In this document: positions 20,525 through 37,541 of the stretch, one piece after another
Layout of the letters: each line of letters opens with the position of its first letter
How positions within the stretch are numbered: position 1 is the stretch's first letter
From: Planctomycetota bacterium
GTDB lineage: Bacteria; Planctomycetota; UBA8108; SXIK01
DNA: 64,000 nucleotides
Reading direction: 5' to 3'
Assembly (NCBI GenBank): GCA_965223845.1
Contig: CBDCXR010000004.1
Coordinates: 2,720,001 to 2,784,000 of the forward strand
Position numbers and translations under genes: made by a program
The notes under the pieces: model-generated
The model's database searches: none
Seen by the model: only the letters and a program-made list of their open reading frames with translations
What the model was told of the DNA's origin: nothing

Positions 20525-23245
20525 TCAGTCGGCCGGATTGAAGATCTGCGTCTCCTGGTGACGGAGATCGACGATGCGCGCGGTCACGAGGATCACGAGG
20601 CTCCGCTTGTCGGAGAACGTCGCCTTCCGGCGGAAGAGGTTGCCGATGATCGGAATGTTTCCGAGGATCGGAATGTACGACTTCATCTTGCCTTCGTCGA
20701 GGCTCTTGAAGCCGCCGAGCATCACCGTACCGCCGTTCGGCACCGTCACCGACGTGAACGACTGCTGGAGCTTGATCTCGGGGATTCCGATCGGCACCTG
20801 GAACGCGACGTTCGTGAAGCTTCCGAGGCTGATGTTGATCGTGCTGATCACACCGCCGATCAGGGTCGCGAGCGTCGGCCGGACGTCCATCGTGACGTAC
20901 TTCTTGTCGTGCGAGATCACCGGCTCGACGTCGAGGATCACACCCTCCTGAAAGGTCTGCACGACCGGGTCGGCGACCTCGATGATCGCGAAGCCGGTAC
21001 CACCGGACACGAGCTCGTAGTCGGCAATGTACGCACGCTGCGTGATCACCGAGACGTACACGCGCTGGCCGTTCGCCGCGGTGATGATCGGCGCGGTGAG
21101 GGTCCGCACGTCCGCGCGCTCCTGGACGGCGCGGAGAATGGTGTTGATCTGGAACGGCTCGAGCCACGTCTGCTGGACCGTCAGGCCGCCGACGCCGCCG
21201 CCCGCATTGAGCGCGCCGTTCTGGCGGAAGCTGCCGGTGAAGCTGTCGATGATGTGCTGCACGCGGCCGGCCCACCGATCCTGTCCCATGATCAGGGTGA
21301 CGTCGCGCGTCGGGCTTCCTTGCTTGACGAAACCGAGATCTTGACCACCCGTGCGCGCGTCGTTGACGACGTTTCCGAAGGGGACACCGTAGTTGTTCAC
21401 GACACCGAGGGCGCGGGAGTCGATCCCGATGTCCTCGAGGAAGTTGTCGTCGATCTCGATGAACCGCGCCTCGATCACGACGAAGAGGTCCGAGTCCTTC
21501 CGAAGGTTCTCGAGGACGGTCTCGATGCGCGAGTGCATGTCGAGAGTTCCGGTCACGAGGAGGTTCCCCGTGTGGTACTCCATCGTGTTCACTTCGCCCC
21601 ACTCGTCGTCGCCGCCGGTACTCTCTCGGATGAGATCCTGGAGCTGATCGGGATCGAGCTCCGAACCTTCCTCCTCGGACTCCGCGATGAACGAGATCGC
21701 CTCGCCGCTGTCCTGATCGTTCGGTCCGCGAAGGATCAGCTCGGGGCCGGTGAAGTCGCGGATCTTATTGAGGATGTCCGAGACGTTGTAAATCCGGAAC
21801 GTCGTGTCACCCGCGACCGGGCTGTCCGCCGGAGTGATGTAGAGGACGTTGTCGCGGAACGTGTACGCGAGTCCGGCTCGGTCGAGGAGCAGGTTGAGCG
21901 CTTCGCGCGCCGACAGCCCTTGAACCTCGAGGGAGACGTTCGTTTCGTCGAGGCCGACGTCCGGATGGACGCCGATGTTGATCCCGAGGAGATCGCGAAT
22001 CTGGTTCACCACCTCGCCGAGCGGCTCGTCGTCAAACGAGAAGTCGACCTTTTGATCGTTGAGGACCGCCTTGATCCGCGTGATCTCTTCGGACTCCTCG
22101 AACGTGTCGAACTGGAGATCCTTGATCCGCTGCCGCGCGCGGTGCCAGTCCTCTTCGCCCGGGAACACGAACACGTTGTCGTACGGAATCCCGGCAGTCT
22201 TGAACGCCTGGTCGAGGAGCTCGCGATTGCTCAAGCGGTCCTCGATCAACTTCTGCCGGCGCTGCTTCAGCAGCTGATCGTGCGCATCGGCACGCCAGAA
22301 TTGGGCGATCCGGTTGCCGGGATCGAGCTCGAGGATTCGATCGCAGGCTTCGATCGCCTTTCGGTACTGGCGATTCGCGATCAGAGCGTGCGATTTTCTG
22401 AGCAGGATCTGCACGCGGTCGCGGCGGATGCGCTCGGTCCTCTCGAGCTCTTGCAGCGCGGCGTCTTCGGCCGCTGCGAGCTCGGAGGTGCGTCGCTCGT
22501 CGTCCTTCCGCGCGCGCTCGCGCCGCACCGTCTCGAGGAAGTTGCGTGCGCTCCGCGCCGAGCTCGCGTCGAAGTCCGGCATCCGGTCGATGGCGTTCAC
22601 CGCGAGCGCCGTGAGGCGCTCCGCCTCCTCGACATCGCCGGCGTCGAACGCGGCCCGCGCTCGCTCGAGATTGTTGCTGATCTGGGCGCGCTGCTGATCG
22701 TCGCGGACGCGTTCCTTTCGGCGGATGTCGTCGCTCACGGCCCCGATGGTGCCGGTGCGCTCACCGGTGAAAAGAAGCGCTTCGTTGAGACGGGAACGAG
22801 CTCCTTCGAGGCTCGGGTCGAGGTCGAGCGCGCGGCGGTAGTGCTCCGCTGCCTTCTCGTACTCGAGCCGCTCGAAGAATCCGTCGCCGACTTCGGCGAG
22901 GACGCGCGCTTCCTGGCGCCGAATCGAGAGCTGCTCGCGCAGGTCGTCGAGGACGGCTTCGGTCCCCGTCGCGCGCGCCCGCGGTGCCGGCGAGTCTTCG
23001 AGAGCGACTTCCGGCTCGTCGTCGAGCTCGGGAAGTTCCGGCTCGTCGGACGGAGCGGCCGCCTCGACGGATTCATCGGCCGTTTCGCGGTCCTGTCCGC
23101 CCGTCAGGGACATCTGGCGCTGCGCCTTCAGGCGGCGGTCGCGGATCGAGTCGGAGCTGCCGCAACCGACCGCGAGGAAGATCACCGCGAGGAGGCTAAG
23201 CCCCAACGCGGTTCCTCGTTCGGCTCTGAGTTTCTGCGTCCTCAT
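20525..23245 (-). CDS. Secretin-family outer-membrane lipoprotein (GspD/PilQ-like) with TPRs, paralog B
   Basis: Lipobox-like LAVGC; TPR region; N0/STN-like FDDEPLGEVV; VIEARFIEIDDNFLEDIG; secretin signature TSVTVPNGGTVMLGG...IPILGNIPIIGNLF...LVILVTARI. Confidence 0.88.
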   Translation of the reverse strand: MRTQKLRAERGTALGLSLLAVIFLAVGCGSSDSIRDRRLKAQRQMSLTGGQDRETADESVEAAAPSDEPELPELDDEPEVALEDSPAPRARATGTEAVLDDLREQLSIRRQEARVLAEVGDGFFERLEYEKAAEHYRRALDLDPSLEGARSRLNEALLFTGERTGTIGAVSDDIRRKERVRDDQQRAQISNNLERARAAFDAGDVEEAERLTALAVNAIDRMPDFDASSARSARNFLETVRRERARKDDERRTSELAAAEDAALQELERTERIRRDRVQILLRKSHALIANRQYRKAIEACDRILELDPGNRIAQFWRADAHDQLLKQRRQKLIEDRLSNRELLDQAFKTAGIPYDNVFVFPGEEDWHRARQRIKDLQFDTFEESEEITRIKAVLNDQKVDFSFDDEPLGEVVNQIRDLLGINIGVHPDVGLDETNVSLEVQGLSAREALNLLLDRAGLAYTFRDNVLYITPADSPVAGDTTFRIYNVSDILNKIRDFTGPELILRGPNDQDSGEAISFIAESEEEGSELDPDQLQDLIRESTGGDDEWGEVNTMEYHTGNLLVTGTLDMHSRIETVLENLRKDSDLFVVIEARFIEIDDNFLEDIGIDSRALGVVNNYGVPFGNVVNDARTGGQDLGFVKQGSPTRDVTLIMGQDRWAGRVQHIIDSFTGSFRQNGALNAGGGVGGLTVQQTWLEPFQINTILRAVQERADVRTLTAPIITAANGQRVYVSVITQRAYIADYELVSGGTGFAIIEVADPVVQTFQEGVILDVEPVISHDKKYVTMDVRPTLATLIGGVISTINISLGSFTNVAFQVPIGIPEIKLQQSFTSVTVPNGGTVMLGGFKSLDEGKMKSYIPILGNIPIIGNLFRRKATFSDKRSLVILVTARIVDLRHQETQIFNPAD

Positions 23246-23379
23246 GAGAGGTCTCCTTTGGGGTGGCTCGAGCCCGATCGTTCGCGGGCCTCTCGCGCCA
23301 CCGTTCGGTGGGATAAAAATCTAAGCGTTGCTGCGCAAAAACGTGATTCTCTTCGAATGGATACTTTGGAGCCGCCCCT

Positions 23380-23976
23380 TCAGGTGTCGTAGTCGTGCTC
23401 TTCAGCCGTCAGCGACACATCGCTGATCCCGAGGCGCTTGCAGATGTCGAGGATGTTGACAACCGACTGCCACGGCACTTGATTCTCGAAGTTGATCTCG
23501 ACCGGGAGCCCCTTGTCGCTCGCACCGGCACTCTCGAAGCGCTGGTGGCGGTACTGGAGGTACTGCTCGACCTCGCGGAAGTCCGGCGACGCGTAGTCGT
23601 AGCGAACAATGCCGCCCTCCGTCGCGTTCTCCATGCGCGTCTCGGTATGCCAGGAACCGTCGGTCAGCTGCTTCGCGTTGGGATCGAACGGGAAGGTGAA
23701 CTGCTGCCGCGTGTCCCCGTTCATCTGGTAGTTGAGCGTCGTGCAAAGCACCTTTCCGGCTTTGTCCCAAGCGAGGTAGAAGGCCACCTGATCCGAAAGC
23801 ACGGGAGGTGGTCCACTCGAGACACCGCGATCCTTGGGAAGATAGGCCTGGAGCTGCCCCTCGAACGCGATGAACTTCGCCGTGAGGACGAAGAAGATGA
23901 GAAGCTGGAAGATGATGTCGATCATCGGCGTCAGGTCCGGCTTCTGATCTTCCGTCGAACGCTCTCGAAGCTTCAT
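23380..23976 (-). CDS. exbD: ExbD/TolR-family protein
   Basis: PDLTPMIDIIFQLLIFFVLT with the conserved TM Asp; VPWQSVVNILDICKRLGI. Confidence 0.88.
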   Translation of the reverse strand: MKLRERSTEDQKPDLTPMIDIIFQLLIFFVLTAKFIAFEGQLQAYLPKDRGVSSGPPPVLSDQVAFYLAWDKAGKVLCTTLNYQMNGDTRQQFTFPFDPNAKQLTDGSWHTETRMENATEGGIVRYDYASPDFREVEQYLQYRHQRFESAGASDKGLPVEINFENQVPWQSVVNILDICKRLGISDVSLTAEEHDYDT

Positions 23977-24058: not shown

Positions 24059-24574
24059 TCACTCCGGGTCGATCGACGCGACAATCACGCGGTAGATCCC
24101 CGCCTGCCCGCACGCCCAAAACACGTCGCGCGTGAATTCCGCGCGGACGCCGCGGTCGCCGCGGACGAGCACTTTCAGCTTGGAGAGTTTCTTGCCGCTC
24201 GGCCCCGGCTCGAAGCCGTTTCCGCGACCGGCCGGGGGAGGTTCGCGGTCGTACCGCGCCTCCTCCTTCAGCCGAGCGAGGAGCTCTTCTTTCTTCAGCG
24301 TCTCGCCCCCGAACCGGATCAGCCCGGCCCGCTCTCCCCGGTCCTTCGCGAGGCCCTCGGGGTCGCGGACGATGTTGATGATGAGCGGGGCGGACGTCGC
24401 ACCGCCGCCCTCCTGCTGCTCCTCACCCTCGAGCGCCACCGGCAACTCGACCTCTTCCACCTGGACCGTGATCTTGGTCGTCAGGATGAAAAAGAGGATG
24501 AGGAGGAACACGCAATCGATGAGCGGCGTCATGTCGGGCGTCGCTCGCTCGGGTTCTCGTGTTCGCAGCTTCAC
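24059..24574 (-). CDS. exbD: ExbD/TolR-family protein
   Basis: PDMTPLIDCVFLLILFFILT; VLVRGDR...VFWACGQAGI; GAGG RBS before the GTG. Confidence 0.9.
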   Translation of the reverse strand: MKLRTREPERATPDMTPLIDCVFLLILFFILTTKITVQVEEVELPVALEGEEQQEGGGATSAPLIINIVRDPEGLAKDRGERAGLIRFGGETLKKEELLARLKEEARYDREPPPAGRGNGFEPGPSGKKLSKLKVLVRGDRGVRAEFTRDVFWACGQAGIYRVIVASIDPE

Positions 24575-24608
24575 GGTTCGTTCCTCTCCGTTTCGAATGA
24601 GGTCGGTC

Positions 24609-25382
24609 TCAGGATGACTTGAACCTTCCGACGATCTCTTCGGCGATCCCGCCCACCTCGAGGACGACGTGGACGACGCGGTTCTTGAAGACCGTGTAGA
24701 GAACGGTCATCGGAATCGCGACCAGAAGCCCGAGGAACGTTGTCACGAGCGCGGTCGAGATACCGCTCGCGAGCTCGTTCGGCTTCGGCTGGACTTCCGC
24801 GCCGGCGATCGTGTTGAACGTCAGGATCATTCCGTAGACGGTACCGAAGAGGCCGAGCATCGGGGAGACGGCCGCGATCAGAGCGAGGTAGCCCACCTTT
24901 TGGTGGAGCTTCGTCGTCTCGAGCTCGCCGGCCTCTTCCATCGCCCGCTGCATCTCCTCGTAGCCGTCGTCGACTCGCTCGAGGCCCGACGCGAGGATGG
25001 CCGAGAGGAAGGAAGGATTGGCCTCGCAGACGTGGAACGCCTCGTCGTGCTCGCCGTCGTCGAGAAGCCCTTCGACCTGCTCGAGGACGTCGGGTGGGAT
25101 CAGAGCGTCGCGCTTGATCTGAAACGCGAACGTGATCGCGAGCGAGAACCCGACCACCGAACAAATCAGGATAATGAATCCGATCACGCCACCGTCGGTG
25201 ACGTAGGTGAGGGCGCTCTTCGTCGGCGCCGCGGTCTCCTGCGCGAATACGGTGTCACCGCCCGCGACGAACCAAAAGAGCGCCACGGCGGCGATCGAGC
25301 ACAAAAACGCGCACACCATTCGGCGCGCTCCGATCCCGCCGCGCCCGAGAATGGGCGTGTCGGCGATCCATTTCCGCTGCAT
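24609..25382 (-). CDS. exbB: MotA/TolQ/ExbB proton-channel protein
   Basis: SPMLGLFGTVYGMI...F...LASGISTALVTTFLGLLVAIP. GAGGAG RBS before ATG 25382; N-terminal signal-like segment. Confidence 0.92.
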   Translation of the reverse strand: MQRKWIADTPILGRGGIGARRMVCAFLCSIAAVALFWFVAGGDTVFAQETAAPTKSALTYVTDGGVIGFIILICSVVGFSLAITFAFQIKRDALIPPDVLEQVEGLLDDGEHDEAFHVCEANPSFLSAILASGLERVDDGYEEMQRAMEEAGELETTKLHQKVGYLALIAAVSPMLGLFGTVYGMILTFNTIAGAEVQPKPNELASGISTALVTTFLGLLVAIPMTVLYTVFKNRVVHVVLEVGGIAEEIVGRFKSS

Positions 25383-25439
25383 ATCTGAACTCCTCGTCGA
25401 TCTCTCTGAATTCACGGCCGGCTCAAACCAAGGTTGCAG

Positions 25440-26495
25440 TCAACTCTCATTGCCACGGGCGCGCGCTGCCCACTCCGACGCGCGATCCTTGTTGCCGAGG
25501 CTTTCGTACACTTTGGCCAGCGCTGCTGCCGTTCGGCGCTGGATCGGCCATTCCTTCGGGTAGAGCGCGGCGACGCGCAAAAACCAAATTTCTGCCTTTT
25601 GAAGATTCTCTCGGCCCCCGAGCCCGATGTGCGCCCGACCGACGAGGTAGGTCGCTTCGGCTCGGTGACTGTCGTAACGAAACTCGCGCACGCGCGAGGA
25701 ATCGAAGAACACGGAGTCGAGCTCCTTGATCGCGCGGTCGAACTGCTTTCGCGCGATGAAAATCCGACTGCGAAGAGTGTAGGCTTCGTGCCGGAGAGCG
25801 AACGGGATCGAACGATCGCGGGTAACGTTGTTCAGCGCCCGCGTCGCCGCTTCGTACTGTCCCTCCGCCTTCGACTCGATCGCCGCGCGGGCGCGGCCGA
25901 TCACGGCGCGCGACCCCCACTGGCCGCCGAACTGCTCGAGCGATTTGAAGGTCGTCGCGGCGGCGGAGCCATCGCCGAGAGCGGTCTGGGCGAGCCCGAG
26001 CTCGTAGACGGCACTCGGGAGCCACCAGTCCTTTTCGGCCTCCGCCGCTTGAACGTACTTTTGCAGCTGCGTTACGGCTTCGTTGTGCTTCCCCGCCTCG
26101 GCGAGTGCACGTCCGAGAAGGTACGACGCCTCGAGCTTCTCCCAGTTCTGGCCCCCGCTCGACACGCGCTCGAGCCGTCGCACGGCGTCGGCGTACCGCC
26201 CCGCGGTGAGCGACTTCCGTGCTTCGGACAGATCGCGACTCTGGGCCGCGCGAGTGATCGACGCGACGGTCGCGCCCTTCACGCTCTGCACACTCTTTGA
26301 CCGTCCCTGCCGGAACTGAATCGTGTCCCACTGCGCGCGGACGATCTCCACGTCGTCCAGCGTCTGGCCGTTGAGCTGCTCGATCGTGTCGGCGCGCGCG
26401 CTGACGGCAGCGACCCCGGCGACGATCAACGCTGCGGCGGCGCAGCGGCGAAACCGACCCATCGTGCTTCGGTAATCCATCGTCCTCGAACTCAT
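25440..26495 (-). CDS. Secreted TPR protein
   Basis: Signal peptide (SARA/DT), TPR helices (ASYLLGRAL, AVYELGLAQ, ATYLVGRAH), FLRVAALYP; start overlaps the upstream stop. Confidence 0.8.
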   Translation of the reverse strand: MSSRTMDYRSTMGRFRRCAAAALIVAGVAAVSARADTIEQLNGQTLDDVEIVRAQWDTIQFRQGRSKSVQSVKGATVASITRAAQSRDLSEARKSLTAGRYADAVRRLERVSSGGQNWEKLEASYLLGRALAEAGKHNEAVTQLQKYVQAAEAEKDWWLPSAVYELGLAQTALGDGSAAATTFKSLEQFGGQWGSRAVIGRARAAIESKAEGQYEAATRALNNVTRDRSIPFALRHEAYTLRSRIFIARKQFDRAIKELDSVFFDSSRVREFRYDSHRAEATYLVGRAHIGLGGRENLQKAEIWFLRVAALYPKEWPIQRRTAAALAKVYESLGNKDRASEWAARARGNES

Positions 26496-29431: not shown

Positions 29432-29594
29432 TCCTTGATCGATCACTTCGGTCACCGGACCAGCATCTCCCCACGTCTCCACTTCTCTTCGCATCTCTTC
29501 CACCGTTGAAGTCGCGAACTTCCGAGACGCCGCGTGCCCGTCACCGCCGCTCGGGCGATCACGGGCACGTGGCGAAACATCGTCGCGCCGAAAA

Positions 29595-32573
29595 TCACGT
29601 ACCGAAGAGCCTCGCCTCTTCCTCGTGGACTACCGTCACCTTGGCGTTGATCAGAACGAACAGGTTGCGCCGGAGCGTCGAGACTCCACGCCGCCCGAGG
29701 ATCAGGTTGAGGATCGGCATATCGAGGAGGCCGGGCACGCCGATCGACGTCTTCGTCGCGATTTCCTGTTTGAGTCCACCGACCAGCACCGTACCGCCGT
29801 CGGGAACGGTGACGGTCGTCTTGATCTTCGTAACCGAGAGCACGGGCAACTCGACCGGAACCACCGTGAAGTTTCCGGACAGGTTGAGCCGTGCCACGTC
29901 GCTCTCGAGCTGCTCGGCCAGCGTCGGCTGGAGCTCGAGGACGACGTACTTGCGATCGTAGCTGAGCGTCGGTCTCACCTCGAGGATGGAGCCCGAGTTG
30001 AGGACGCCGATCACCGGGTTGATGACCGGGATGACACCCGTCTGGTTGACCTCGAGGTCCTGGATGTACGCGCTCTGCTGGACGACCAGCGTGTGGGAGG
30101 TCTGCCCGTTGAACGCGGTGACCCGCGGGGAGTTGAGGCGCCGCACTTCCTGCTCCTTCGCGACGCCGGTGAGGATCGCTTCGAGCTGGAATCGCTCGGC
30201 CTTGAGAACGTTGAGCTGGTAGACGCCGCCGCCCTCGTTCGTGAGGTTGAACGGATTCACGGCGGAGCCGAGCGGGGTGCTCAGATTGCCGATCGACGCG
30301 ATACGCGCGTTGTAGTCGCCCTGCGGGTTGACGTACTCGTACCCGGGCTGAACGCTCGTCCCTGCGCCGTCGATATCGGGAATCGTGTTCGGGAGGAAGG
30401 TATTGCTCGCACTACCGAAGTCGACGCCGATCTCCTCGAGGAAGTTGTCGTTAATATCGAGGAAGCGCGACTCGACGGTCACCATGACGCCGGTCGACTT
30501 GCGGAACTGCTTGAGGAGCTTCACGAGCTTCAAGTGATTCGCGAGCGTCGTCCGCGCCGCGAGCTTTCCGGCCATGAGGCTGATCCCGGCTTCGTCACCG
30601 CCGCCGCCATCATCCTCATCGCCGCCGCCTTCGAGCTCCTTTCGGATCAGGTCGAGCAGCACGTCCGTCTCGAGCGGCCCCTGCGCTTCGGGCTCCCCAC
30701 CGAGGTCGATGAGGCTCTCGTCGCCGCCCGTCTTTCCCGCGAGCTCGTCGAGCGCGAGCCCCGGAGCCTTGAAGTCCGGACGCGAGCTGATCAGGTCGTT
30801 GATGTCGTAGAACTTGAGGTACTTCCGCACATTCAGGGACTCTTGCGGACCGATCTGAACCGCGCCGTCCTTGATGGCGTATCCGAAACCCGTCCCCGCC
30901 TTCGATCCAATCGTCTGGAGGATGATCTTGAGGATGCTCTCGAGCGGGAGATTGTTGTACTGCGGAAGCTGGATCGTCTCCTCTTCGTGCTCCGCACCCT
31001 CGCGGGTGAGAACGAAGTTGATCGCGGAAATCTCCCGGAGGGTGTTGAGGACGTCCTTGAACGACGTCTCCTGCTCGAAGTTGAGGCTGTGCTTGGCGAG
31101 AAGCTTCGCCTTGATGTCTCGCTCGCTCGCCGTCTCGCTCGCCGCGATCTCGTCTTCGAGGCTGACGACCTTGGGCGCGAGCCGGAACCACTCGTCGCGC
31201 TCCGGATAGCGGAAGATCTGCTGGTAGACGATCGAGCTCTCCTCGATTCCGATCACCGCGAGCTCGTAGTTCTCTGCGTAGGCCTTTCGGAGTCGTTCCT
31301 GCGTCTGCGTCTGCAAGTTGTCGCGCGCGATCTTGAGGCGGAGATTCGCTTCCTTGTCTCGCGCGTCGATGAGGAGAATGCTCTCGTAGAGCGAGACCGC
31401 GCGCTTGTAGTCGCGAGCGTCCTCGGCGGCCCGCGCCTTGCGGCGGAGCTGGCGAAGCTTGTTCTCGACGATGCGGAGGTCCGAGTTTCGCTCCTTCGCC
31501 TTCTGCTCGGCGATCATCTTGCGGAACGCTTCGCGCTCGGCTTCTTCCTGCTCGCTCTTCAGCCGCTCGAGCTGAGCGAGACCGGTCTTGACTTCGGCCT
31601 CGATGGTGTCGAGATCGAGATCGAACGGATAGTTGCGAATGGACTCGAGCACGCGCTCGTAGGCGTCGATGGCCTGAGCGTACTGCTGCTCGTCTTTGTG
31701 CCTCGCCGCTTGCGTCATCAGGCGGTGGATTTCGACCCGCGCCTGTTCCTTCTGCACTTTGTGGGTGTTCACGATATCGCGAATCGTCGCCCCGACTCCG
31801 GCGCCGGAGTCTCCGAGGAGGAGACGCACTTCGTCGAGGAGGCGACCCGCGGCCTCGTTCCCCGGATCGACGGAGACGGCTTCCTCGAGCGCGGCTTCGG
31901 CCTTGAGGAGATCGGCATTCGCGCGGTGGGCTTCCGCCTGACGGACGAGCTCGGCAGCGTGTTCGCGCCGGGCTTCCTTGCCGAGACCGAGCTCGTCGAT
32001 GAGCTGTCCCGGATTGATCTGACGCGTGGGACGGCGCGCGGGACGCGGCGCGGGACGCGTGGGAGCGGGCTCCGGCGCGGGCTCGACGACGGGGGTGTCA
32101 TCGTCGTCGTCGTCGTCGAGGAGGTCGAGATCGTCGTCGTCATCGTCGTCGAGGCTGACGTCACCATCGCCATCGTCGAGGCTGACGTCGTCGTCGTCGT
32201 CGAGCGACAGATCGTCGTCGTCATCCAGATCGAGATCGTCGTCATCGTCTAGACCCAGATCGTCGTCATCGTCCAGGTCGAGATCGTCGTCATCGTCCAG
32301 GTCGAGATCGTCGTCATCATCGTCGTCGAGGTCGAGGAGGCTCTCGATGTCCTCGTCGTCGCTCTCCTGACCCCCTCCGCCGTGAAGACTGCCGCGGTCG
32401 TCGCTCAGCGGCGAGTCCCACTCGCGCGTCTCTTCTCCGAGCAGGATGCCCTGCCGCACCCAATCCTCACTCACGAGCGACGTCTCGCGACGTGGCTGGT
32501 TGCTCGAGCACGCGGCGATGAGCGCCAGCAGAAACCCGACCGCGCAGAAGCTGCTCAGCCTTCTGAAATCCAT
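29595..32573 (-). CDS. Secretin-family lipoprotein with acidic N-terminal repeats, paralog A
   Basis: MDFRR...LIAAC lipobox with AAGGGA RBS; TPR/coiled coil; N0-like FEQETSFKDVL; VTVESRFLDINDNFLEEIGVDF; TTVTVPDGGTVLVGG...VPGLLDMPIL. Confidence 0.88.
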   Translation of the reverse strand: MDFRRLSSFCAVGFLLALIAACSSNQPRRETSLVSEDWVRQGILLGEETREWDSPLSDDRGSLHGGGGQESDDEDIESLLDLDDDDDDDLDLDDDDDLDLDDDDDLGLDDDDDLDLDDDDDLSLDDDDDVSLDDGDGDVSLDDDDDDDLDLLDDDDDDDTPVVEPAPEPAPTRPAPRPARRPTRQINPGQLIDELGLGKEARREHAAELVRQAEAHRANADLLKAEAALEEAVSVDPGNEAAGRLLDEVRLLLGDSGAGVGATIRDIVNTHKVQKEQARVEIHRLMTQAARHKDEQQYAQAIDAYERVLESIRNYPFDLDLDTIEAEVKTGLAQLERLKSEQEEAEREAFRKMIAEQKAKERNSDLRIVENKLRQLRRKARAAEDARDYKRAVSLYESILLIDARDKEANLRLKIARDNLQTQTQERLRKAYAENYELAVIGIEESSIVYQQIFRYPERDEWFRLAPKVVSLEDEIAASETASERDIKAKLLAKHSLNFEQETSFKDVLNTLREISAINFVLTREGAEHEEETIQLPQYNNLPLESILKIILQTIGSKAGTGFGYAIKDGAVQIGPQESLNVRKYLKFYDINDLISSRPDFKAPGLALDELAGKTGGDESLIDLGGEPEAQGPLETDVLLDLIRKELEGGGDEDDGGGGDEAGISLMAGKLAARTTLANHLKLVKLLKQFRKSTGVMVTVESRFLDINDNFLEEIGVDFGSASNTFLPNTIPDIDGAGTSVQPGYEYVNPQGDYNARIASIGNLSTPLGSAVNPFNLTNEGGGVYQLNVLKAERFQLEAILTGVAKEQEVRRLNSPRVTAFNGQTSHTLVVQQSAYIQDLEVNQTGVIPVINPVIGVLNSGSILEVRPTLSYDRKYVVLELQPTLAEQLESDVARLNLSGNFTVVPVELPVLSVTKIKTTVTVPDGGTVLVGGLKQEIATKTSIGVPGLLDMPILNLILGRRGVSTLRRNLFVLINAKVTVVHEEEARLFGT
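32097..32366 (-). repeat. Coding tandem repeat, ~24 bp unit encoding (L/V)x L D5
   Basis: Translation LDLDDDDDDDLDLDDDDDLDLDDDDDLGLDDDDDLDLDDDDDLSLDDDDDVSL... Confidence 0.9.
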
Positions 32574-33370
32574 GACTATCCCTTTCCGGACTCCCGCGAG
32601 GACCGAACGTCCCAGCGGGATCTCGACGCTTGAATGCAGATCACGACCCGCCGCCGGTGTCTCCGAGCGCCGAGCTGGTCGTCTAACTAGCGATGCGAAA
32701 ACCTCAGATCCACGAGTCGGCACGGTGGAACCACTGCGACCAAGAGCCAGAGGGCTGTCGGGCGCCCGAGACGGACGGGGACCACCGATCGAGTCTCTCA
32801 GATCTGTCATGATGAACCTGCTGTAGCCGACGAACGGCACGGTGCGACGCGCACCACCCGTTCGACCGTGGATTGTCCTGAGTTGTGTGATCTAGGCGGA
32901 GGTTCGATCCCGGTTCTCGACGACGACCCGCCCGGACGACGGCGCGAGTTTTGCGCGCCTCGCCGTCCGACGAGGTCCCCGGAGACAACCGCAGGGGCGG
33001 AGTACGGGATCAAAAAAGGAGTGCCACCGGTAGAGCGTTCAGGTGGGGAACGGGGACGCCGAAGGGCCCGAGTGACTCGGGAGACGAACCCCGCGCTCGC
33101 GAACGAAGGATCGATCCGCGAGAGCGACTCGCCGGAGCGCTTCGAGTGCCACCCAGAAGCGAACGGCGAGGCGGTCCGGGTCGAGGCGACCCGAACTCGT
33201 TTCATGTTCCCATTCCCGATTCTGAAAATCTACCTCTTTTCTAACGAACCGTGTTTCTGTCGATCGCAGCTCACCGTTTCGCTCCCGGCGATGCCGAGGG
33301 TTGAAGGTCGAGCCGCGCTGTCATGTTCTTGCCGCAGCACGAATTCGCGTCGCGCCGCGTATGTGAATTC

Positions 33371-34459
33371 CTAATTGCCCCCGAAACCCCGGTTTCCGCG
33401 CCGCGGACGGCGGGTCGGCGCCGGGGAATCGTCGGTCGAAGGCTCCGGCACCGCTTCCACTTCGGCGGGCTCTTCGTCGCCTTCGGTGCCGTCACCGTCG
33501 TCCTCTGAGGCGCCGACGAGGGGCGACCACAGCTCGACCGTGAACGGGCGGTCTTTGCGGGAAATCGGGTAGCGCGCGCCGCGCACGCCCGCGCTGCTAT
33601 CGATGATCGTAACGGACTTCGATGCTTCGTCGATGCGGCGAATCTCGTAGCGATCGTTCCCGAACTTGACGCGCTCGCCGAGCGTCGTGCTCGACTTCGT
33701 CACGACCTCGCCCTTCGCGTAGTCCCAGTACTGATACCGGCACAGAACTCGCGTATCGGTGCCGTCGACCAGCACGTTCGACACGCGGAAGTTGAAGTCG
33801 TAGGGGATCGCCTCCGTCGGCCCCAAGACCTCGGACTCCTGGCGCCGCGCCGCGAGAGGTTCGACGTGTTCGACCGAACGATCCTCGACGGCTTCAGTGA
33901 TGATCTTGTAGGTGTAGGTCTTGCCCGGTTCGACGTCGAAATCCGGATACTGAAAATCGCCGTCCGCTTCGAGCGAGAGCTCACGAAACGAGCCACCCTC
34001 GCCTTCGCTGCGAAGAAGCCGCACCTTCTCGAGGACGATGTTCTCGTTGATCGAGCTCATCTTCCCCTCGACGAGGAGATACACCTTCTTCTTCTGGGCA
34101 TCGCGCAGACAGCTCACCTGAGCCACTGCGGCCGGTTCGTGAACGCTCGCGACGGCTTGAATCTCCTGGGTCCGCTTGATGAGCGCCGGGGCGGCCTCCG
34201 TCAGCCAGCCCGCATCCGTACTGCCGACGCCGGGGTCCCACTGCGAACGCAGAATCCCGACGACATCGACGACGGGATCCTGAAGGAGCGGCTCCTCGGA
34301 TTTCTGCTGGTACGTACGAACTTCCGCATTGAGGTCGTTGCGGATCTTGTCGACGTCCCCGCCGGCAAAGAACGGAAGCGCGATCAGCGCAAGGCCGAGT
34401 ACCGCAGCGATACCGTAGGAGACTTTGTCGATTTGCTGGACTAGGTTCTTTTCGGACAT
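33371..34459 (-). CDS. Membrane-anchored periplasmic protein with Fn3-like domain (PilP/GspC position)
   Basis: N-terminal TM YGIAAVLGLALIALPFF; Fn3-like FQYPDFDVEPGKTYTYKI; acidic/Pro C-terminal tail. Confidence 0.7.
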   Translation of the reverse strand: MSEKNLVQQIDKVSYGIAAVLGLALIALPFFAGGDVDKIRNDLNAEVRTYQQKSEEPLLQDPVVDVVGILRSQWDPGVGSTDAGWLTEAAPALIKRTQEIQAVASVHEPAAVAQVSCLRDAQKKKVYLLVEGKMSSINENIVLEKVRLLRSEGEGGSFRELSLEADGDFQYPDFDVEPGKTYTYKIITEAVEDRSVEHVEPLAARRQESEVLGPTEAIPYDFNFRVSNVLVDGTDTRVLCRYQYWDYAKGEVVTKSSTTLGERVKFGNDRYEIRRIDEASKSVTIIDSSAGVRGARYPISRKDRPFTVELWSPLVGASEDDGDGTEGDEEPAEVEAVPEPSTDDSPAPTRRPRRGNRGFGGN

Positions 34460-34523
34460 GACAACTGGTCCTCAGACAGAGGCCGCGGCCCCTCGTAGAT
34501 GGATTCGTGGGGAGAGCGACGCC

Positions 34524-35519
34524 TCATACGTCATCATCATCATCGTCGTCATCGTCATCATCATCGTCGTCGTCGTCATCATCATCATCGTCGTCGTCAT
34601 CGCCGGCTTCGATCGGATCGTAACCCTTCCAATCGAGAGCACTCAGCTGAAACGCAACCGTGACGACGGCGGGAGAGACGATGCTGTCATACGACGCCCG
34701 TTCGGCTGTCCCGGCGTCGTCGAAGGTCTGTTCCACCTGAAGCCCGATGTACGGAGTGAGCTGCTGGGCGGACTTTTGCGCGGTGAAGCCATCGAGCATG
34801 AAGAGAACGCGGTCGCTCTCGAACAGCTTCGCGAGCGTCTCTTCAACGAGATCGAGCGGCATCTCGACGGTGATATCGAGCGTGATGCGACGGTAGTGCT
34901 CGGTTTCCGTTTCGTCGTCGCCGCTCCGCCCGCCTCCAGTCCGCTCCCCGAAGTTGAGAATCTTCAGGCCGCCGATCTCTAGCGCGGTCAGAGCCTCGAA
35001 CACCTCGCTCACGATCCAAAACTCCCGCATGAAGCGCGGGACCATGTCGTCGGTGATCGCGGAGTCCTCGACGATATCGACCTTCGGGATCTCGTCCCCG
35101 GATTCGCTGTCGACGGTGATTCCGAACTTCTCGCGGTAACTCGACACGATGGCCGAGATTCCCTCGCGGTAACGGGCGGAGAACTCGCCGGCCGACATAT
35201 CGTCAGCGTTCGGATCGAAATACTCGGAGAATTTCGCCTGCCGCCGGTTGTAGAACTCGGCGCCGGCGTTGTGAGCGATGCGCTTGCGCTCGACCCCCGT
35301 CTCCAGCGCGTCGCGGTAGCGTCGCGTCGGCGCGACGTCCGCGCGGTTGTACTTCTTCGCGCTGTCGAGCTCGCGCTGGAGCGCATCGCGTTTCCCGGGG
35401 ATGGAGTCCGACCCGCTCCCGTAGAGGGGCTGGAGGACCAGGAACCACGAGAGCGCGCCGAGAACGACGACGATCGCTCCGAGCGAAATCCAGTAGAGAT
35501 TCTCTTTCAGCTTATCCAT
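34524..35519 (-). CDS. PilO-like bitopic membrane protein with D24 tail
   Basis: N-terminal TM, coiled coil, beta/alpha C-terminal domain; directly follows pilMN. The PilO assignment rests on position and topology. Confidence 0.6.
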   Translation of the reverse strand: MDKLKENLYWISLGAIVVVLGALSWFLVLQPLYGSGSDSIPGKRDALQRELDSAKKYNRADVAPTRRYRDALETGVERKRIAHNAGAEFYNRRQAKFSEYFDPNADDMSAGEFSARYREGISAIVSSYREKFGITVDSESGDEIPKVDIVEDSAITDDMVPRFMREFWIVSEVFEALTALEIGGLKILNFGERTGGGRSGDDETETEHYRRITLDITVEMPLDLVEETLAKLFESDRVLFMLDGFTAQKSAQQLTPYIGLQVEQTFDDAGTAERASYDSIVSPAVVTVAFQLSALDWKGYDPIEAGDDDDDDDDDDDDDDDDDDDDDDDDV

Positions 35520-35579
35520 GCTTCAGACGGTTCCCTTCGGCAGAAGATTTCGCACGAGGACGAGGATCGACGGCTTCGT

Positions 35580-37541
35580 TCATGCGTCGTCGTCATCGTC
35601 ATCATCATCGTCGTCATCATCATCGTTGTAGTATTCGTCGTCATCATCGTCGTCGTCGTCGTCGCCCGCATCCGGGTCTCGGTACTTCTCGGGCAGGACG
35701 TACCACGACGTCAACGCGCCGTAGTACGGCGCGCCGGCTTGCTTCGACTCCTCGTTTCCACCTTCGATCTGCTCTGCGGTCGGATCGTCAACGTAGATCG
35801 CGTTCAAGTTGCCGACGCCGGGCTTGACGACGACCTCCGTCAGATGGGTGAGATCCGCATCACGGATCTGGGCCCGCCCGAGCGCCGTCTCGAGGGGGCG
35901 CTCGAATCGCTCGACAATCGTCTCGTGATCCTGGATCTGGTTACCGCTGCTCTTCACGACGACGAACGCCGAGAACTTGAGCGCCGGCTGCTTGCCGTCT
36001 TCCTTGTTCGATTGTCCGCGCTTCTTCTTGCCGCCGACGTCCTCGGGATAACGGACGGACTCCATCGCCACGTACGGCACCCACATCTTGCCGCTCAATC
36101 CCGCGATGACATCGTCGAGCACCCCTGTGGCGCCCGTCGCGTCTTCCGCCCGGAGCTGCCGGGTCACCGCGTCCTGATTCGGCGTCGACGCGAGCACTCG
36201 CTCGAGCACGCGAATGGCTTCGATCGCGTGATTGCGATGTTTTCCGACTTCGGTCAGCGTCGCCATACCCGAAGCGATCTTCTCGTCCGCCTCCGTGCTG
36301 AACTTCTCGATCTGGGAGTAGACCGACTTCGGCTCCCGGAGCTCGTCCTTAGCGTTTTCGATCGCCGAGGCGATCTGTCCGCGCTTGTGCTGGACGAGCG
36401 CCCACGCGATCAGAATCGCCACGAGGAGAGCGGCCGCCGCGATGAATGCGTGCTTCTTCTTCCGATCGACTTCCTTCTTGACCTTCTCCTCCGTCGGGAT
36501 GAGGTCGACGTCGCACGTCCCGAATCCGATCGCCTGAAGGCCGCCGCCGAGGGCGGGGGCGAACGCCGGCAAATCCGCCTGGAGGAGGCGGACGTTGACC
36601 TCACGGCTCAGCCGCACGCGCCGGATCGATTGGGCGCGCTCGACCGGGACACCGAGGTGCTCCTGGAGGAAATTCTTCAGACCGACCAGCTTCGCGCCGT
36701 TTCCGAAGAGGAATGCTCGGGCGAAGTTCGCTTCCCCGGCCTGGCTTCGGTAGTAACCGATCGACCGGTGGATCTCCTGGACGAGATCGCGGAGTTTCGG
36801 CTGAAGCACGGCGTCGAAAATCTTCTTCGCCTGTTGGGGGTTCCGCCCCATCTGCAGCTTCAGTCGCTCGGCTTCGCTAAACCCGAGCTTGAAGCGCTGC
36901 ATCATCGCCCGAGTGATGTCTTCGGAGCGGTGCGGCAGGGGTCGACTCCAGAACCGCTCTTTGTCGATGAGGACGAGATCGGTGTGCGATGCGCCGAGAT
37001 CGAGAACGATCGCGGGCTCCTCGAGATCGAGGTCATAGGCGGCGAAGTTGAAGAGCGCGAGATTGCTGACCGACAGCATCTCGACGTTGAGGCCCTCGTT
37101 CGCGAAATCGATGAGCGAGTCATCGATGGCCTCGCGTCGAACCGCGAAGAGACTCACGTCGCGCTCTTCGCCGGAGCCGTACTCGCGGTCGACGACGTGA
37201 AAGTCCCAGATGACTTCGTCGAGAGGAAACGGGATCTGCTGCTGCGCCTCGTAGCCGACCATCTCCGCGAGACGTTTCTGGTCGAACGCCGGGATCTTGA
37301 TGAAGCGCATGAACGTTCCCTGGGTGGGGTGAACGACCACCACCGGGTCGCGAACGTCGTTACGCGACTTGAAAATCGCCAGCGCTTCGCGCGCCTGCCC
37401 CGCGTCGAATCCGTCTGCCCCCGCCGTGTAGTCGACCTTGTCGACCGCCAGGATCTCGACGTTGGCCTTATCTCGGCGGAGGTGCACCGCCTTCAGAGAC
37501 GACTTGCCAATATCGACACACCAGATCGTGTGGAATGCCAT
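35580..37541 (-). CDS. pilM: Type IV pilus assembly PilM-PilN fusion with poly-Asp tail
   Basis: Actin-like VDIGKSSLKAV, YEAQQQIPFPLDEVIWDF, LDLGA, EIHRSIGYY, GNGAKLVGL; then VDLIP (PilN INLLP equivalent), TM and coiled coil. Confidence 0.88.
   Translation of the reverse strand: MAFHTIWCVDIGKSSLKAVHLRRDKANVEILAVDKVDYTAGADGFDAGQAREALAIFKSRNDVRDPVVVVHPTQGTFMRFIKIPAFDQKRLAEMVGYEAQQQIPFPLDEVIWDFHVVDREYGSGEERDVSLFAVRREAIDDSLIDFANEGLNVEMLSVSNLALFNFAAYDLDLEEPAIVLDLGASHTDLVLIDKERFWSRPLPHRSEDITRAMMQRFKLGFSEAERLKLQMGRNPQQAKKIFDAVLQPKLRDLVQEIHRSIGYYRSQAGEANFARAFLFGNGAKLVGLKNFLQEHLGVPVERAQSIRRVRLSREVNVRLLQADLPAFAPALGGGLQAIGFGTCDVDLIPTEEKVKKEVDRKKKHAFIAAAALLVAILIAWALVQHKRGQIASAIENAKDELREPKSVYSQIEKFSTEADEKIASGMATLTEVGKHRNHAIEAIRVLERVLASTPNQDAVTRQLRAEDATGATGVLDDVIAGLSGKMWVPYVAMESVRYPEDVGGKKKRGQSNKEDGKQPALKFSAFVVVKSSGNQIQDHETIVERFERPLETALGRAQIRDADLTHLTEVVVKPGVGNLNAIYVDDPTAEQIEGGNEESKQAGAPYYGALTSWYVLPEKYRDPDAGDDDDDDDDDEYYNDDDDDDDDDDDDDA

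Follow-up and report, generated by a model that had tools for sequence, protein, structure and literature searches.

A type IV pilus-like scaffold, two secretins and an ExbB-ExbD-ExbD motor in a conserved planctomycete locus: a candidate apparatus for the import of large polymers

Introduction

The described systems closest to the locus reported here are the alignment and secretin complex of type IVa pili (T4aP; PilMNOPQ), the GspL/M/C/D components of the type II secretion system (T2SS), the TonB-ExbB-ExbD and Tol-Pal systems, and two kinds of loci from the PVC superphylum. PilM normally works with cytoplasmic ATPases, and every characterised secretin system known to us moves material outwards. 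Motors of the ExbBD type are known above all from import and from work on the envelope. In the Agl-Glt gliding machinery of Myxococcus, one TolQ-like and two TolR-like proteins (AglRQS) are accompanied by TPR proteins in a GltC/D/E pattern, and secretins are not known to take part.

A TPR-tolQ-tolR-tolR system with a vWA protein occurs in Planctomycetes and Verrucomicrobia, according to the paper describing it (Mol Biol Evol 2025, PMC12204202). In it, a TPR gene is joined by a single TolQ/ExbB gene and two dissimilar TolR/ExbD genes, and an inner-membrane-tethered vWA 'force transducer' lies downstream; a text search of the paper returned 0 occurrences of 'secretin'. In Akkermansia, the accumulation of mucin products inside the cell is reported to need the MUL genes, described as coding for pili and for a complex of periplasmic proteins, in a review, an article (ISME J 2026) and a preprint (bioRxiv 2025.12.30.696933). 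The review names MUL1 as needed together with MUL2 (Amuc_1098-1102), and the article takes MUL2 to be a system for attachment or a pilus.

Here we describe a ten-gene locus from a Planctomycetota bacterium in which a pilus-like scaffold, two secretins and an ExbB-ExbD-ExbD motor are encoded together. A full-text literature search found no paper describing this cluster.

Organization of the locus

The window, that is, the whole stretch of DNA analysed, covers 64,000 nucleotides of contig CBDCXR010000004.1 (C4:2720001-2784000). An initial annotation had assigned ten co-oriented genes to positions 20525-37541 of its minus strand, and a Pfam scan, complemented by predicted folds for genes 2 and 3, agrees with it on coordinates, orientation and identities. 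In order of transcription, the features of the locus and its downstream flank are:

37793..37822, minus strand: sigma-70-like promoter consensus ~250 nt upstream of gene 1 (TTGACA-18-TACGAT, 10/12 matches, TG before the -10)
35580..37541, minus strand: gene 1, PilM-PilN fusion of the Amuc_1101 family, 653 aa (Pfam PilM_2, E 3.9e-35)
34524..35519, minus strand: gene 2, bitopic PilO-like protein with a predicted Amuc_1100 fold, 331 aa (AlphaFold model, pLDDT 75.8)
33371..34459, minus strand: gene 3, 362 aa, bitopic; predicted Fn3-like (103-221) and PilP/GspC-HR-like beta (221-300) domains (model pLDDT 69.5)
32574..33370, minus strand: ~800-nt interval that separates gene 3 from the likely secretin A start and holds no convincing ORF
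29595..32573 (long ORF to 32840), minus strand: secretin A (Pfam Secretin, E 3.5e-18; lipobox LIAAC)
26492..29503, minus strand: large TPR protein, predicted periplasmic, 1003-aa ORF (signal-like segment at residues 59-77)
25440..26495, minus strand: small TPR protein, predicted periplasmic, 351 aa (Pfam TPR_19, E 2.6e-9; NCBIfam YbgF, 39 bits)
24609..25415, minus strand: ExbB/TolQ-type proton channel subunit (Pfam MotA_ExbB, E 1.4e-31)
24059..24574, minus strand: ExbD/TolR paralogue 1 (Pfam ExbD, E 5.2e-16)
23380..23976, minus strand: ExbD/TolR paralogue 2, its periplasmic part being longer (Pfam ExbD, E 4.9e-16)
20525..23245, minus strand: secretin B (Pfam Secretin, E 2.1e-25, TPR_2 and STN; lipobox LAVGC)
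20457..20499, minus strand: terminator-like hairpin after the secretin B stop (15-bp GC stem, MFE -57.6 kcal/mol, z -5.5)
18940..20427, minus strand: secreted type I sulfatase, CSPTR motif at residue 110 (Pfam Sulfatase, E 1.4e-50)
18081..18810, minus strand: HAD hydrolase of the TIGR02253 family (171.2 bits, cut-off 169.75); the ORF extends to 19169

Intergenic gaps run from -4 to 134 nt, the negative value being the overlap of the small TPR start with the large TPR stop; the exception is the interval between gene 3 and secretin A. The most likely start of secretin A is the lipoprotein signal MDFRR...LIAAC near 32573, at residue 90 within the long ORF that reaches up to 32840; the identity given by the initial annotation stands. 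This start leaves the ~800-nt gap, a possible internal promoter region with a second transcription start, which may split the operon; no Rfam family was found in it.

The annotated promoter exists and is the sole such site in 20000-38200 (~18 kb), yet shuffled sequences give 2.0, so the candidate is well placed but statistically unremarkable, and only its location speaks for it. The downstream hairpin is real, with none of 200 shuffles matching its stability. Beyond it, the HAD gene follows the terminal secretin on the same strand at a distance of 13-263 nt in 19/26 loci of relatives. In this genome the sulfatase gene separates secretin B from the HAD gene; it may be an insertion and is treated as a neighbour only, its membership in the system not being indicated. 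On the other side, 9 kb upstream of the locus, lies a ComEC gene (46565-49672, plus strand; Pfam Competence, E 7.3e-48).

By Pfam, neither the ten genes nor those scanned on the flanks have a pilin, prepilin peptidase, ATPase, PilC, TonB or receptor domain, in keeping with the initial annotation, which had remarked on these absences; TolA, TolB and Pal genes are likewise missing from the locus. Genome-wide there are 11 T2SSE ATPase, 12 T2SSF (PilC/GspF), 3 TonB_C and 5 TonB-dependent receptor matches, none of them inside the window. A canonical, self-contained pilMNOPQ set stands apart at C4:742-748 kb, and two sets of ATPase and PilC genes (near 1.54 Mb and 7.54 Mb) are without a secretin match in their vicinity. 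The lack of an ATPase thus applies to the locus only, and the two secretin-free sets could serve its scaffold in trans. The motor is not required by other systems of the genome, where canonical TonB-ExbBD-receptor sets are self-contained: the three TonB genes adjoin three of the five receptors, and two of them adjoin an ExbB of their own.

Scaffold and secretins

The first three genes and secretin A follow the M-N-O-P-Q order of T4aP. Gene 1 encodes a cytoplasmic actin-like domain, a PilN-type L-x-P motif, a TM helix (365-383) and a periplasmic part. It scores 156.9 bits against TIGR01175 pilM (cut-off 133) and 249.7 bits (E 7e-74) against Amuc_1101_fam, which is below the equivalog level (cut-off 650), and the canonical PilN of the same genome aligns to positions 347-456 of its profile, INLLP-type motif included. 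These comparisons make gene 1 a genuine fusion of PilM and PilN that belongs to the Amuc_1101 family. Genes 2 and 3 each have an N-terminal TM anchor and contain no Pfam family, and their former labels, 'PilO-like' and 'Fn3', agree with the predicted folds. Searched against the PDB with Foldseek, the gene 2 model has crystal structures of Amuc_1100 as its ten best matches (E 9e-6 to 2e-4), and PilO (3jc8_Oa, 2rjz) comes next; hhalign aligns the gene 2 profile with an Akkermansiaceae protein of the Amuc_1100 family (probability 91.9%, E 7e-7). The model thus places gene 2 in the Amuc_1100/PilO fold. For gene 3, Foldseek gave no match at E<=1e-3. VIA-align returned middling Z values, namely 9.4 for Fn3 domains, 8.3 for the HR domain of GspC in its complex with GspD (3oss_C; rmsd of 2.2 over 63 residues, for a chain of 65) and 7.9 for Myxococcus PilP (3jc8_Pa), and the predicted fold accordingly reads as an Fn3 domain joined to a PilP/GspC-HR-like domain.

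The two secretins are full-length paralogues in a clade of their own. Secretin A consists of a lipoprotein signal, a poly-Asp acidic linker, a TPR-like helical region, an N0/STN-like region and the secretin domain; secretin B has a lipoprotein signal, TPR, STN/N0 and secretin domain. They are collinear (28% identity over 865 columns, E 2e-76) and closest to each other in a tree that includes the six other secretins of the genome (SH-like support 0.973), the clade of all cluster secretins having a support of 0.925. Both show PilQ-type similarity, and secretin B also matches HofQ. Compared with T4aP and T2SS, the locus shares the PilM domain, the PilN motif with its TM helix, the PilO fold, the PilP/GspC-HR-like domain and the secretin. 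The differences are the fusion of M with N, an additional Fn3 domain in the P-like protein, the lipoprotein nature and TPR regions of the secretins, and the absence of pilin, ATPase and platform genes from the locus.

The nearest relative of this half is MUL2. In an Akkermansiaceae genome (G301), one locus (L089) encodes the families Amuc_1102_rel, 1101, 1100, 1099 and 1098 in that order, and the present locus repeats the sequence of a PilM-PilN fusion, an Amuc_1100/PilO-like protein, a further bitopic protein and a TPR-secretin. Besides the gene 1 and gene 2 matches, secretin B matches Amuc_1098_fam over residues 412-893 (112 bits, E 2e-32), although its score, like that of gene 1, falls far below the NCBIfam equivalog cut-off (750 for secretin B). 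These similarities assign the scaffold half to the Amuc_1098-1101 (MUL2) lineage. Unlike MUL2, the locus has no Amuc_1102-like gene, no similarity in sequence could be detected between its gene 3 and the Amuc_1099-like protein, and it adds a second secretin and the ExbB-ExbD-ExbD-TPR block.

The motor block

The channel motifs of TM2 and TM3 of ExbB are conserved across 26 orthologues, and the proton-relay aspartate D20 in the TM helix is invariant in both ExbD paralogues (28/28 sequences for paralogue 1, 27/27 for paralogue 2). The TPR proteins are less sharply defined. The large one has a single Pfam match, TPR_6, which lies below the cut-off (E 0.0062); its atlas neighbours are planctomycete TPR proteins, and it weakly matches YbgF/CpoB and PorW. 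They nevertheless appear to go together with the motor, to judge from gene order: two other cassettes of the same genome read large TPR-ExbB-ExbD, and loci in Verrucomicrobiota read ExbB-ExbD(-ExbD)-large TPR.

As in TonB-ExbB-ExbD and Tol-Pal, an ExbB/TolQ subunit is paired with ExbD/TolR proteins retaining the conserved channel residues, and the STN domain is common to secretins and TonB-dependent transducers; here, no TonB/TolA-like transducer was found within the locus. The block also resembles the TPR-tolQ-tolR-tolR system, sharing with it the TPR gene, the single ExbB and the two different ExbDs. Whereas a vWA protein lies downstream in that system, a secretin does so here; the locus has no vWA protein tethered to the inner membrane, and no conserved His or SHLS-type motif was found in the TM helices of genes 1-3.

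A further parallel in composition is a second locus of the Akkermansiaceae genome (L092), ExbB-ExbD-ExbD-1100-aa TPR-Mul1B_fam (252 bits against a cut-off of 75), through which MUL1 is seen here. Judged by its gene content, the motor half has the same composition: one ExbB, two ExbDs, a TPR protein of ~1000-1100 aa and a protein of ~320-400 aa. There the TPR genes follow the motor, here they precede it, and the Akkermansiaceae motor and secretin loci are not linked to each other. Homology between the two smaller proteins is not indicated (small TPR against Mul1B_fam, 17.2 bits; hhalign probability 1.3%), and the large TPR profile does not match the 1100-aa TPR protein.

Conservation among relatives

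Linkage was measured in a sample of 301 Planctomycetota genomes from three anchors: the large TPR protein, PilMN and ExbB. The large TPR protein occurs in 28 genomes, and 20 of its 27 non-self matches were fetched. Nineteen of these loci keep the gene order of the window for as much of it as their contigs cover, and one is unrelated; all ten genes are present in eight, and two lack a second secretin within 4.8 kb or more. PilMN is far more widespread (228/301). Among 40 PilMN loci, one or two per family, 19 have a secretin and ExbB-ExbD-ExbD, co-oriented, within 20 kb; in 21 the fetched stretch holds no ExbB (some being cut by contig ends), and 12 of these also lack a co-oriented secretin. Around the cluster-type ExbB (180/301 genomes), co-oriented secretins stand on both sides in 10 of 20 loci, on one side in five and on neither in five, and the motor lies between two paralogous secretins in at least ten sampled loci from eight families.

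The initial annotation had taken the position of the motor between the secretins as an argument against chance adjacency, and the 15 ExbB loci with co-oriented secretins and 19 collinear TPR loci support it. Synteny is thus conserved across many Planctomycetota families, and the gene neighbourhoods indicate a conserved unit, not a chance one. Unlinking of the TPR-exbBDD block, which would speak against such a unit, is also seen in part of the sample: besides the PilMN loci without ExbB, the parts are dispersed in four genomes (G008, G070, G156, G172). In two others (G027, G077) the PilMN locus is motor-free and secretin-TPR-ExbBDD-secretin stands elsewhere, and in G066 both secretins sit with ExbB, 1.45 Mb from PilMN. 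Nor does the conservation of the whole extend to Verrucomicrobiota, where 105 of 121 sampled genomes have the PilMN fusion and none of 20 PilMN-secretin loci carries ExbB or ExbD. On these genomic grounds the PilM module is considered separable from the secretin-motor core.

Possible functions

The locus is a real, conserved system, and there is about an even chance that it encodes one envelope-spanning apparatus of PVC-superphylum type in which a proton motor works the secretins, probably to import a large polymer. The PilM-PilN fusion, the Amuc_1100-like PilO and the Fn3 protein with its PilP/GspC-HR-like domain would form an inner-membrane scaffold built like the T4P alignment complex and docked onto the N0 domains of the outer-membrane secretins, which would form the pore or pores. 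In the motor, ExbB (probably pentameric) would surround a heterodimer of ExbD1 and ExbD2, with the two soluble TPR proteins alongside in the periplasm. Proton flow through ExbB-ExbD1D2 would be turned into mechanical work there and passed by the TPR proteins, the scaffold or both to the secretin N-domains, opening a gate or ratcheting the polymer through, most likely inwards, into an enlarged periplasm. In this scheme we infer the physical contacts, the ExbB:ExbD stoichiometry, the transport direction and the cargo.

Alternatively, two or three independent systems may stand side by side: a PVC-type pilus or pseudopilus machine (PilMN, PilO, PilP-like protein and secretins), driven in trans by ATPase, PilC and pilin genes located elsewhere, and a Tol-like TPR-ExbB-ExbD cassette for outer-membrane maintenance or another client, their adjacency reflecting shared regulation of envelope genes or inherited order. 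The ATPase and PilC genes elsewhere in the genome, the motor-free Verrucomicrobiota loci, the dispersed genomes and the weak YbgF/CpoB matches of the TPR proteins all fit this account, as does the fact that the two other TPR-ExbB-ExbD cassettes adjoin PD40 (TolB-like) proteins and not secretins. We consider it rather unlikely, since the motor stays with the secretins when PilMN is elsewhere (G066, G027, G077 and 15/20 ExbB loci), the block recurs between paralogous secretins, the arrangement is conserved across many families of the phylum, and TolA, TolB and Pal are missing from the locus.

A single machine could also work outwards, in proton-motive force (PMF)-assisted export or assembly of surface fibres or polymers, such as the fibres of crateriform structures. 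This would agree with the outward transport of characterised secretin systems, with the pilin-like Amuc_1102-family gene of the Akkermansiaceae MUL2 locus, with the reading of MUL2 as an attachment or pilus system and with the fibres from crateriform structures discussed in another review. The locus itself, however, contains no pilin-like gene, a weak search with an Akkermansiaceae query found no Amuc_1102-like gene in the genome, ExbBD-type motors point towards import and envelope work, and the Akkermansia phenotype in the review on the MUL genes concerns accumulation inside the cell, all of which make export improbable.

Surface motility, also proposed initially, is very doubtful: one ExbB, two heterologous ExbDs and TPR proteins recall AglRQS and GltC/D/E, but the ten genes include no Glt-type component other than TPR proteins, Agl-Glt is not known to contain secretins, gliding is to our knowledge not a planctomycete trait, and the closest relatives found are Akkermansia MUL-type loci. 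A competence conduit, with the secretins as outer-membrane DNA channel for the nearby ComEC, is just as hard to credit despite their PilQ-type and HofQ matches, since ComEC lies on the opposite strand beyond UDG, radical SAM and cytidylyltransferase-like genes and the locus has no pseudopilins or ATPase.

Two papers describe the uptake mechanism of planctomycetes as unknown. If the secretins are indeed worked inwards by the ExbB-ExbD motor, the locus would be a candidate for the machinery behind large-polymer uptake in these bacteria.

Organization of the cluster

Pfam assignments bear out the ten-gene order given in the initial annotation; all ten genes are on the minus strand, between 20525 and 37541. 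PilM_2 is found in gene 1 (PilMN), Secretin in genes 4 and 10 (secretins A and B), the latter also containing TPR and STN domains, MotA_ExbB in gene 7 (ExbB), ExbD in genes 8 and 9 (ExbD1 and ExbD2), and TPR repeats in gene 6 (small TPR). Gene 5 (large TPR) shows a single weak TPR_6 match (E 0.0062, below cut-off), and genes 2 (PilO-like) and 3 (Fn3) are without any Pfam family. Intergenic distances range from -4 to 134 nt, except ahead of secretin A, where ~800 nt (32574-33370) between gene 3 and the probable secretin A start hold no convincing ORF. The window, this stretch included, gave no Rfam or tRNA match. The promoter-like site and downstream hairpin annotated earlier are both present; statistically, the hairpin stands out (z -5.5) and the promoter-like site does not. 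On the upstream side of gene 1, a 450-nt gap is followed by a UDG-family gene. A ComEC competence-channel gene (46565-49672, plus strand; 1035-aa ORF) is found on the opposite strand, 9 kb upstream of the cluster.

Secretins and motor

Both secretins carry lipoprotein signals in a hydropathy scan. The start of secretin A probably lies near 32573, because its signal begins at residue 90 of a long ORF. Secretins A and B are 28% identical over 865 aligned columns. In a FastTree phylogeny of 102 secretins (C-terminal 430 residues), they fall into an A clade of 21 tips and a B clade of 12 tips, each with support of 1.0 and joined at a node of 0.973. The planctomycete cluster secretins form one clade (support 0.925) that excludes the six other secretins of the genome and the verrucomicrobial secretins linked to PilMN. 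One secretin match, in locus L029, sides with a different secretin of the genome. C-terminal to the lipobox, secretin A contains a linker of ~100 residues, almost purely Asp with scattered Leu, which may serve as a long tether or in cation binding; the acidic stretch of secretin B is shorter.

Acidic linker of secretin A
~32100-32400, minus strand: acidic linker, long-ORF residues ~150-245

The motor genes retain conserved channel residues. The membrane aspartate is invariant in both ExbD paralogues (28/28 and 27/27 aligned orthologues), and the TM2 and TM3 motifs of ExbB are kept. In some lineages a single ExbB is followed by three or four ExbD genes (L007, L022, L028, L037, L043, L118, L127, L131, L136). 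The N-termini of the two TPR proteins resemble signal peptides and lack a lipobox cysteine (hydropathy scan), and the protein-atlas neighbours of the large one are solely planctomycete TPR clusters. Predicted as a complex with the small TPR, the periplasmic parts of ExbD1 and ExbD2 scored 0.00 in two runs, a result that counts neither way.

Large TPR proteins go with the motor and not with the secretins. The genome holds two further motor cassettes composed of a 1194-aa TPR protein, ExbB, ExbD, and a PD40-repeat protein of 1314 or 1366 aa, and verrucomicrobial genomes encode ExbB-ExbD(-ExbD)-large TPR in several copies. This association with motor cassettes argues against a simple secretin-pilotin role. 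The PD40 (TolB-like) proteins of the two paralogous cassettes also contain a weak squalene-hopene-cyclase-like region, and the cassettes may represent Tol-like systems with an unusual make-up.

Paralogous TPR-ExbB-ExbD-PD40 cassettes in the window's own genome (G000)
G000:C4:1454000-1473999: first cassette (L095)
G000:C4:2005500-2025499: second cassette (L096)

Linkage across Planctomycetota

Linkage was measured in 301 sampled genomes of the phylum from three anchors, the large TPR, PilMN, and ExbB. The large TPR was detected in 28 genomes, and 20 of its 27 non-self matches were fetched as loci. Nineteen of these are, to the extent that their contigs allow, collinear with the window, eight of them showing all ten genes; L017 and L020 lack a second secretin for at least 4.8 kb downstream, and L019 is unrelated. 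As a probe of distribution the large TPR was set aside in favour of PilMN and ExbB because it diverges too fast (28/301 genomes). In four genomes of one genus (L002-L005), all contigs stop ~550 nt past ExbD2, where the second secretin would start, and this shared endpoint suggests a repeat or other assembly-breaking sequence.

PilMN was detected in 228/301 genomes, from which 40 loci were picked irrespective of content, each family giving one or two. A secretin and ExbB-ExbD-ExbD are present, co-oriented and within 20 kb, in 19/40; nine have a secretin without ExbB in the fetched stretch, twelve have neither, and seven of the 40 end early at contig boundaries. Cluster-type ExbB was detected in 180/301 genomes. 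Twenty ExbB loci were examined, ten from genomes with a motorless PilMN locus and ten from families without a strong PilMN match. Co-oriented secretins stand on both sides of the motor in ten, on one side in five (three at contig ends), and on neither side in five.

These counts divide the synteny of pilM, secretin, TPR, and exbBDD genes envisaged by the initial annotation. The secretin-motor linkage recurs (15/20 ExbB loci), whereas the pilM module is separable. In genomes G027 and G077, the PilMN locus is motorless and secretin-TPR-ExbB-ExbD-ExbD-secretin is sited elsewhere; in G066, two secretins adjoin ExbB and PilMN is 1.45 Mb away. Cluster parts are dispersed in G008, G070, G156, and G172. 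As the secretins stay with ExbB where PilMN is elsewhere, the conserved core is secretin-motor-secretin. The window's lineage and many others add the PilMN/O/P-like module to this core, yet the module can be separated from it.

A scaffold related to the Akkermansia mucin-utilisation loci

Gene 1 begins with a PilM domain (PilM_2, E 3.9e-35; TIGR01175 pilM, 156.9 bits, exceeding the cut-off of 133), C-terminal to which the hydropathy scan places a single TM helix. The genome's separate, canonical PilN aligns to positions 347-456 of the gene 1 profile (domain E 2.6e-9), starting just past the PilM domain and spanning an INLLP-type motif, the TM helix, and a coiled coil; pairwise BLAST alone finds no similarity between the two. 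L-x-P-x-E is kept among 26 orthologues. On these alignments, gene 1 is a real PilM-PilN fusion. Its nearest NCBIfam family is Amuc_1101 (NF045709; E 7.3e-74, 249.7 bits), a score that makes homology clear though it falls short of the equivalog cut-off of 650.

Genes 2 and 3 encode proteins with N-terminal membrane anchors (hydropathy scan), and sequence searches of the PDB with both gave nothing better than E 0.35. An AlphaFold model of gene 2 built from 23 orthologues (pLDDT 75.8) was compared with the PDB by Foldseek. Crystal structures of Akkermansia muciniphila Amuc_1100 take the first ten places (E 9e-6 to 2e-4), ahead of PilO from Myxococcus and Pseudomonas (3jc8_Oa, E 6.9e-4; 2rjz, E 7.6e-3). 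The gene 2 profile also matches an Akkermansiaceae Amuc_1100-family protein with an hhalign probability of 91.9%, and there is no match to the NCBIfam Amuc_1100_fam at E<=1. In the gene 3 model (pLDDT 69.5), there are a TM helix and two beta domains, one of them Fn3-like (Z 9.4); with the whole model, Foldseek returned nothing at E<=1e-3. In VIA-align, the second beta domain (residues 221-307) resembles the HR domain of GspC bound to GspD (3oss_C; Z 8.3, rmsd 2.2, 63 residues aligned of a 65-residue chain) and Myxococcus PilP (3jc8_Pa, Z 7.9), a likeness to PilP/GspC for which no sequence match was found. Because these Z values are middling, the modelled domain is probably, and not provenly, of PilP type. 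With a PilMN fusion, a PilO fold, and a probable PilP-like protein in genes 1-3, genes 1-4 therefore read M-N-O-P-Q.

Fusions of PilM and PilN also occur in 105/121 sampled Verrucomicrobiota. A secretin follows ~2 kb after PilMN in all 20 loci fetched, and neither ExbB nor ExbD lies within the fetched 20 kb of any of them. The verrucomicrobial secretins and those of the planctomycete cluster occupy separate clades of the tree. L105 and L114, two of the 20 loci, carry two tandem secretins but no motor, so that secretins can be paired in the absence of an ExbBD block.

In an Akkermansiaceae genome (G301), the Amuc_1102_rel, Amuc_1101, Amuc_1100, Amuc_1099, and Amuc_1098 families are encoded in this order at one locus (L089), as matched by NCBIfam. 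Another (L092) encodes ExbB-ExbD-ExbD, an 1100-aa TPR protein, and a Mul1B-family protein (252 bits, cut-off 75). The first corresponds to the mucin-utilisation locus MUL2 (Amuc_1098-1102) of Akkermansia, and the second is of the type of MUL1, which holds Mul1B and ExbBD genes. According to the available portions of later papers, MUL2 is important in mucin acquisition, and the accumulation of mucin products in the cell depends on MUL genes that encode pili and a periplasmic complex (review; ISME J 2026; bioRxiv 2025.12.30.696933).

On the scaffold side, gene 3 takes the position of Amuc_1099 in the gene order; it matches neither the Akkermansiaceae Amuc_1099-like protein in hhalign nor any NCBIfam family. 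Secretins B and A score 112 and 49.9 bits against the Amuc_1098 family (cut-off 750). MUL2 differs in having an Amuc_1102-family pilin-like gene upstream of PilM, where the window has the UDG-family gene; a search of the genome with the Akkermansiaceae protein, a weak and hence uninformative query, found no Amuc_1102-like gene. The scaffold half belongs to a lineage already named (Amuc_1098-1101 families) and genetically studied in Akkermansia. On the motor side, the window and L092 both combine ExbB, two ExbD, and a large TPR. The small TPR matches Mul1B at 17.2 bits (cut-off 75) with an hhalign probability of 1.3%, which is no support, so the motor halves have a common composition and their orthology is not demonstrated.

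Genes beside the terminal secretin

A HAD hydrolase of the TIGR02253 family is encoded on the same strand 13-263 nt downstream of the terminal secretin in 19/26 loci with at least 1 kb visible there. It was found in 23 loci in total, and identities of 42-72% across them rank it with the best-conserved genes of the comparison; it may be an eleventh conserved cluster member or simply old synteny. Between it and secretin B, the window has a sulfatase gene and the hairpin. In other families, a ~2-kb gene between ExbD2 and the terminal secretin is PF00884 sulfatase-like in six of seven loci tested; that of L131 has no Pfam match. Three of the six proteins have C-terminal TPR repeats and none has C-x-P-x-R at the expected place. 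This gene may be a further, lineage-specific component. The window sulfatase is probably not its orthologue, as it contains the CSPTR signature that the in-cluster proteins lack.

Features beside the terminal secretin
18081-19169, minus strand: HAD hydrolase, TIGR02253, in the window
L001, L007-L011, L013, L015, L032, L033, L043, L052, L054, L122, L128, L129, L131, L134, L137: HAD hydrolase also present
18940-20427, minus strand: secreted type I sulfatase, CSPTR signature, in the window directly after the secretin B hairpin
L128:11885-13549, L129:7085-8761, L130:6673-8568, L134:11764-13773, L132:6808-8805, L022:3611-5665: sulfatase-like genes between ExbD2 and the terminal secretin

Proposed apparatus and alternatives

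The best-supported explanation of the cluster is a single apparatus, in which a PMF-driven motor would be coupled to the secretin pair and the pilus-type scaffold; the coupling itself we infer from gene linkage only. The main alternative, that the modules work independently and the scaffold is served in trans by an ATPase and PilC set, is substantial. The cluster has the PilM domain, the PilN motif and TM helix, and the PilO fold in common with PilMNOPQ of the type IVa pilus, whereas the partners of that system (PilB/PilT ATPases, the PilC platform, and pilins) are found in neither the cluster nor the window. All ATPase and T2SSF (PilC) domain matches in the genome lie outside the window, and two ATPase and PilC sets with no secretin match nearby could act on the scaffold in trans.

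TonB systems comprise TonB, with its SHLS TM helix and C-terminal domain, and a TonB-dependent receptor; the cluster contains neither, and the TM helices of genes 1-3 have no conserved His of the TonB/TolA kind. All matches to TonB_C and TonB-dependent receptors are outside the window. Of the five TonB-dependent receptors in the genome, three adjoin its three TonB genes, two of which also have an ExbB of their own alongside, so that the cluster motor is not needed by these systems. In the PVC group, TPR-tolQ-tolR-tolR cassettes are followed by vWA 'force transducers' (2025; PMC12204202). The motor cassette type has thus already been noted there, going by the available part of that paper, with an inner membrane-tethered vWA protein after the motor where the window has a secretin; Pfam finds no vWA domain in any of the ten cluster proteins. 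The Myxococcus Agl-Glt gliding machinery shares solely the pattern of one TolQ with two TolR and the TPR proteins, and a gliding machine has a low probability, as does a competence conduit for DNA uptake.

For a single coupled apparatus, the likeliest role is to import large glycans or glycoproteins, as suggested by the Akkermansia analogy and by the lack of an explanation for how planctomycetes take up polymers. Whole polymers enter an enlarged periplasm in these bacteria, by a mechanism and players described as unknown in the available text of papers from 2024 and 2025.

Implications

The secretin systems known to us all export, powered by cytoplasmic ATPases or by self-assembly, and we know of no characterised secretin system driven by an ExbB/ExbD motor. 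A bolder proposal, less likely than not, is that the cluster encodes a secretin-based importer, which would be the first of its kind. In this view, the paralogous secretins would be opened by a proton motor of the form ExbB5-ExbD1-ExbD2, acting via periplasmic TPR proteins and the pilus-type scaffold, and polysaccharides or glycoproteins would be drawn whole into the periplasm. Such a machine would be the uptake apparatus long sought in Planctomycetota and might form the core of the crateriform structures. To the two mucin-utilisation loci of Akkermansia it would stand as a fused ancestral or related form.

No description of a secretin-ExbBD cluster, or of its spread in Planctomycetota, was found in the titles, abstracts, and passages reached by full-text search. 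What appears to be new is the joining of scaffold and motor cassette around a secretin pair, spread over the phylum. The linkage yields a short list of genes for planctomycete knock-outs, namely the secretins, ExbB, the ExbD pair, the TPR pair, and the PilMN/O/P-like scaffold. It adds to a view, now taking shape, of TPR-ExbBD motor cassettes as modules that work for various outer-membrane clients. It also provides a rationale for regarding the two MUL loci of Akkermansia as a single machine in two parts, an idea that bears on mucin feeding by a prominent gut symbiont.
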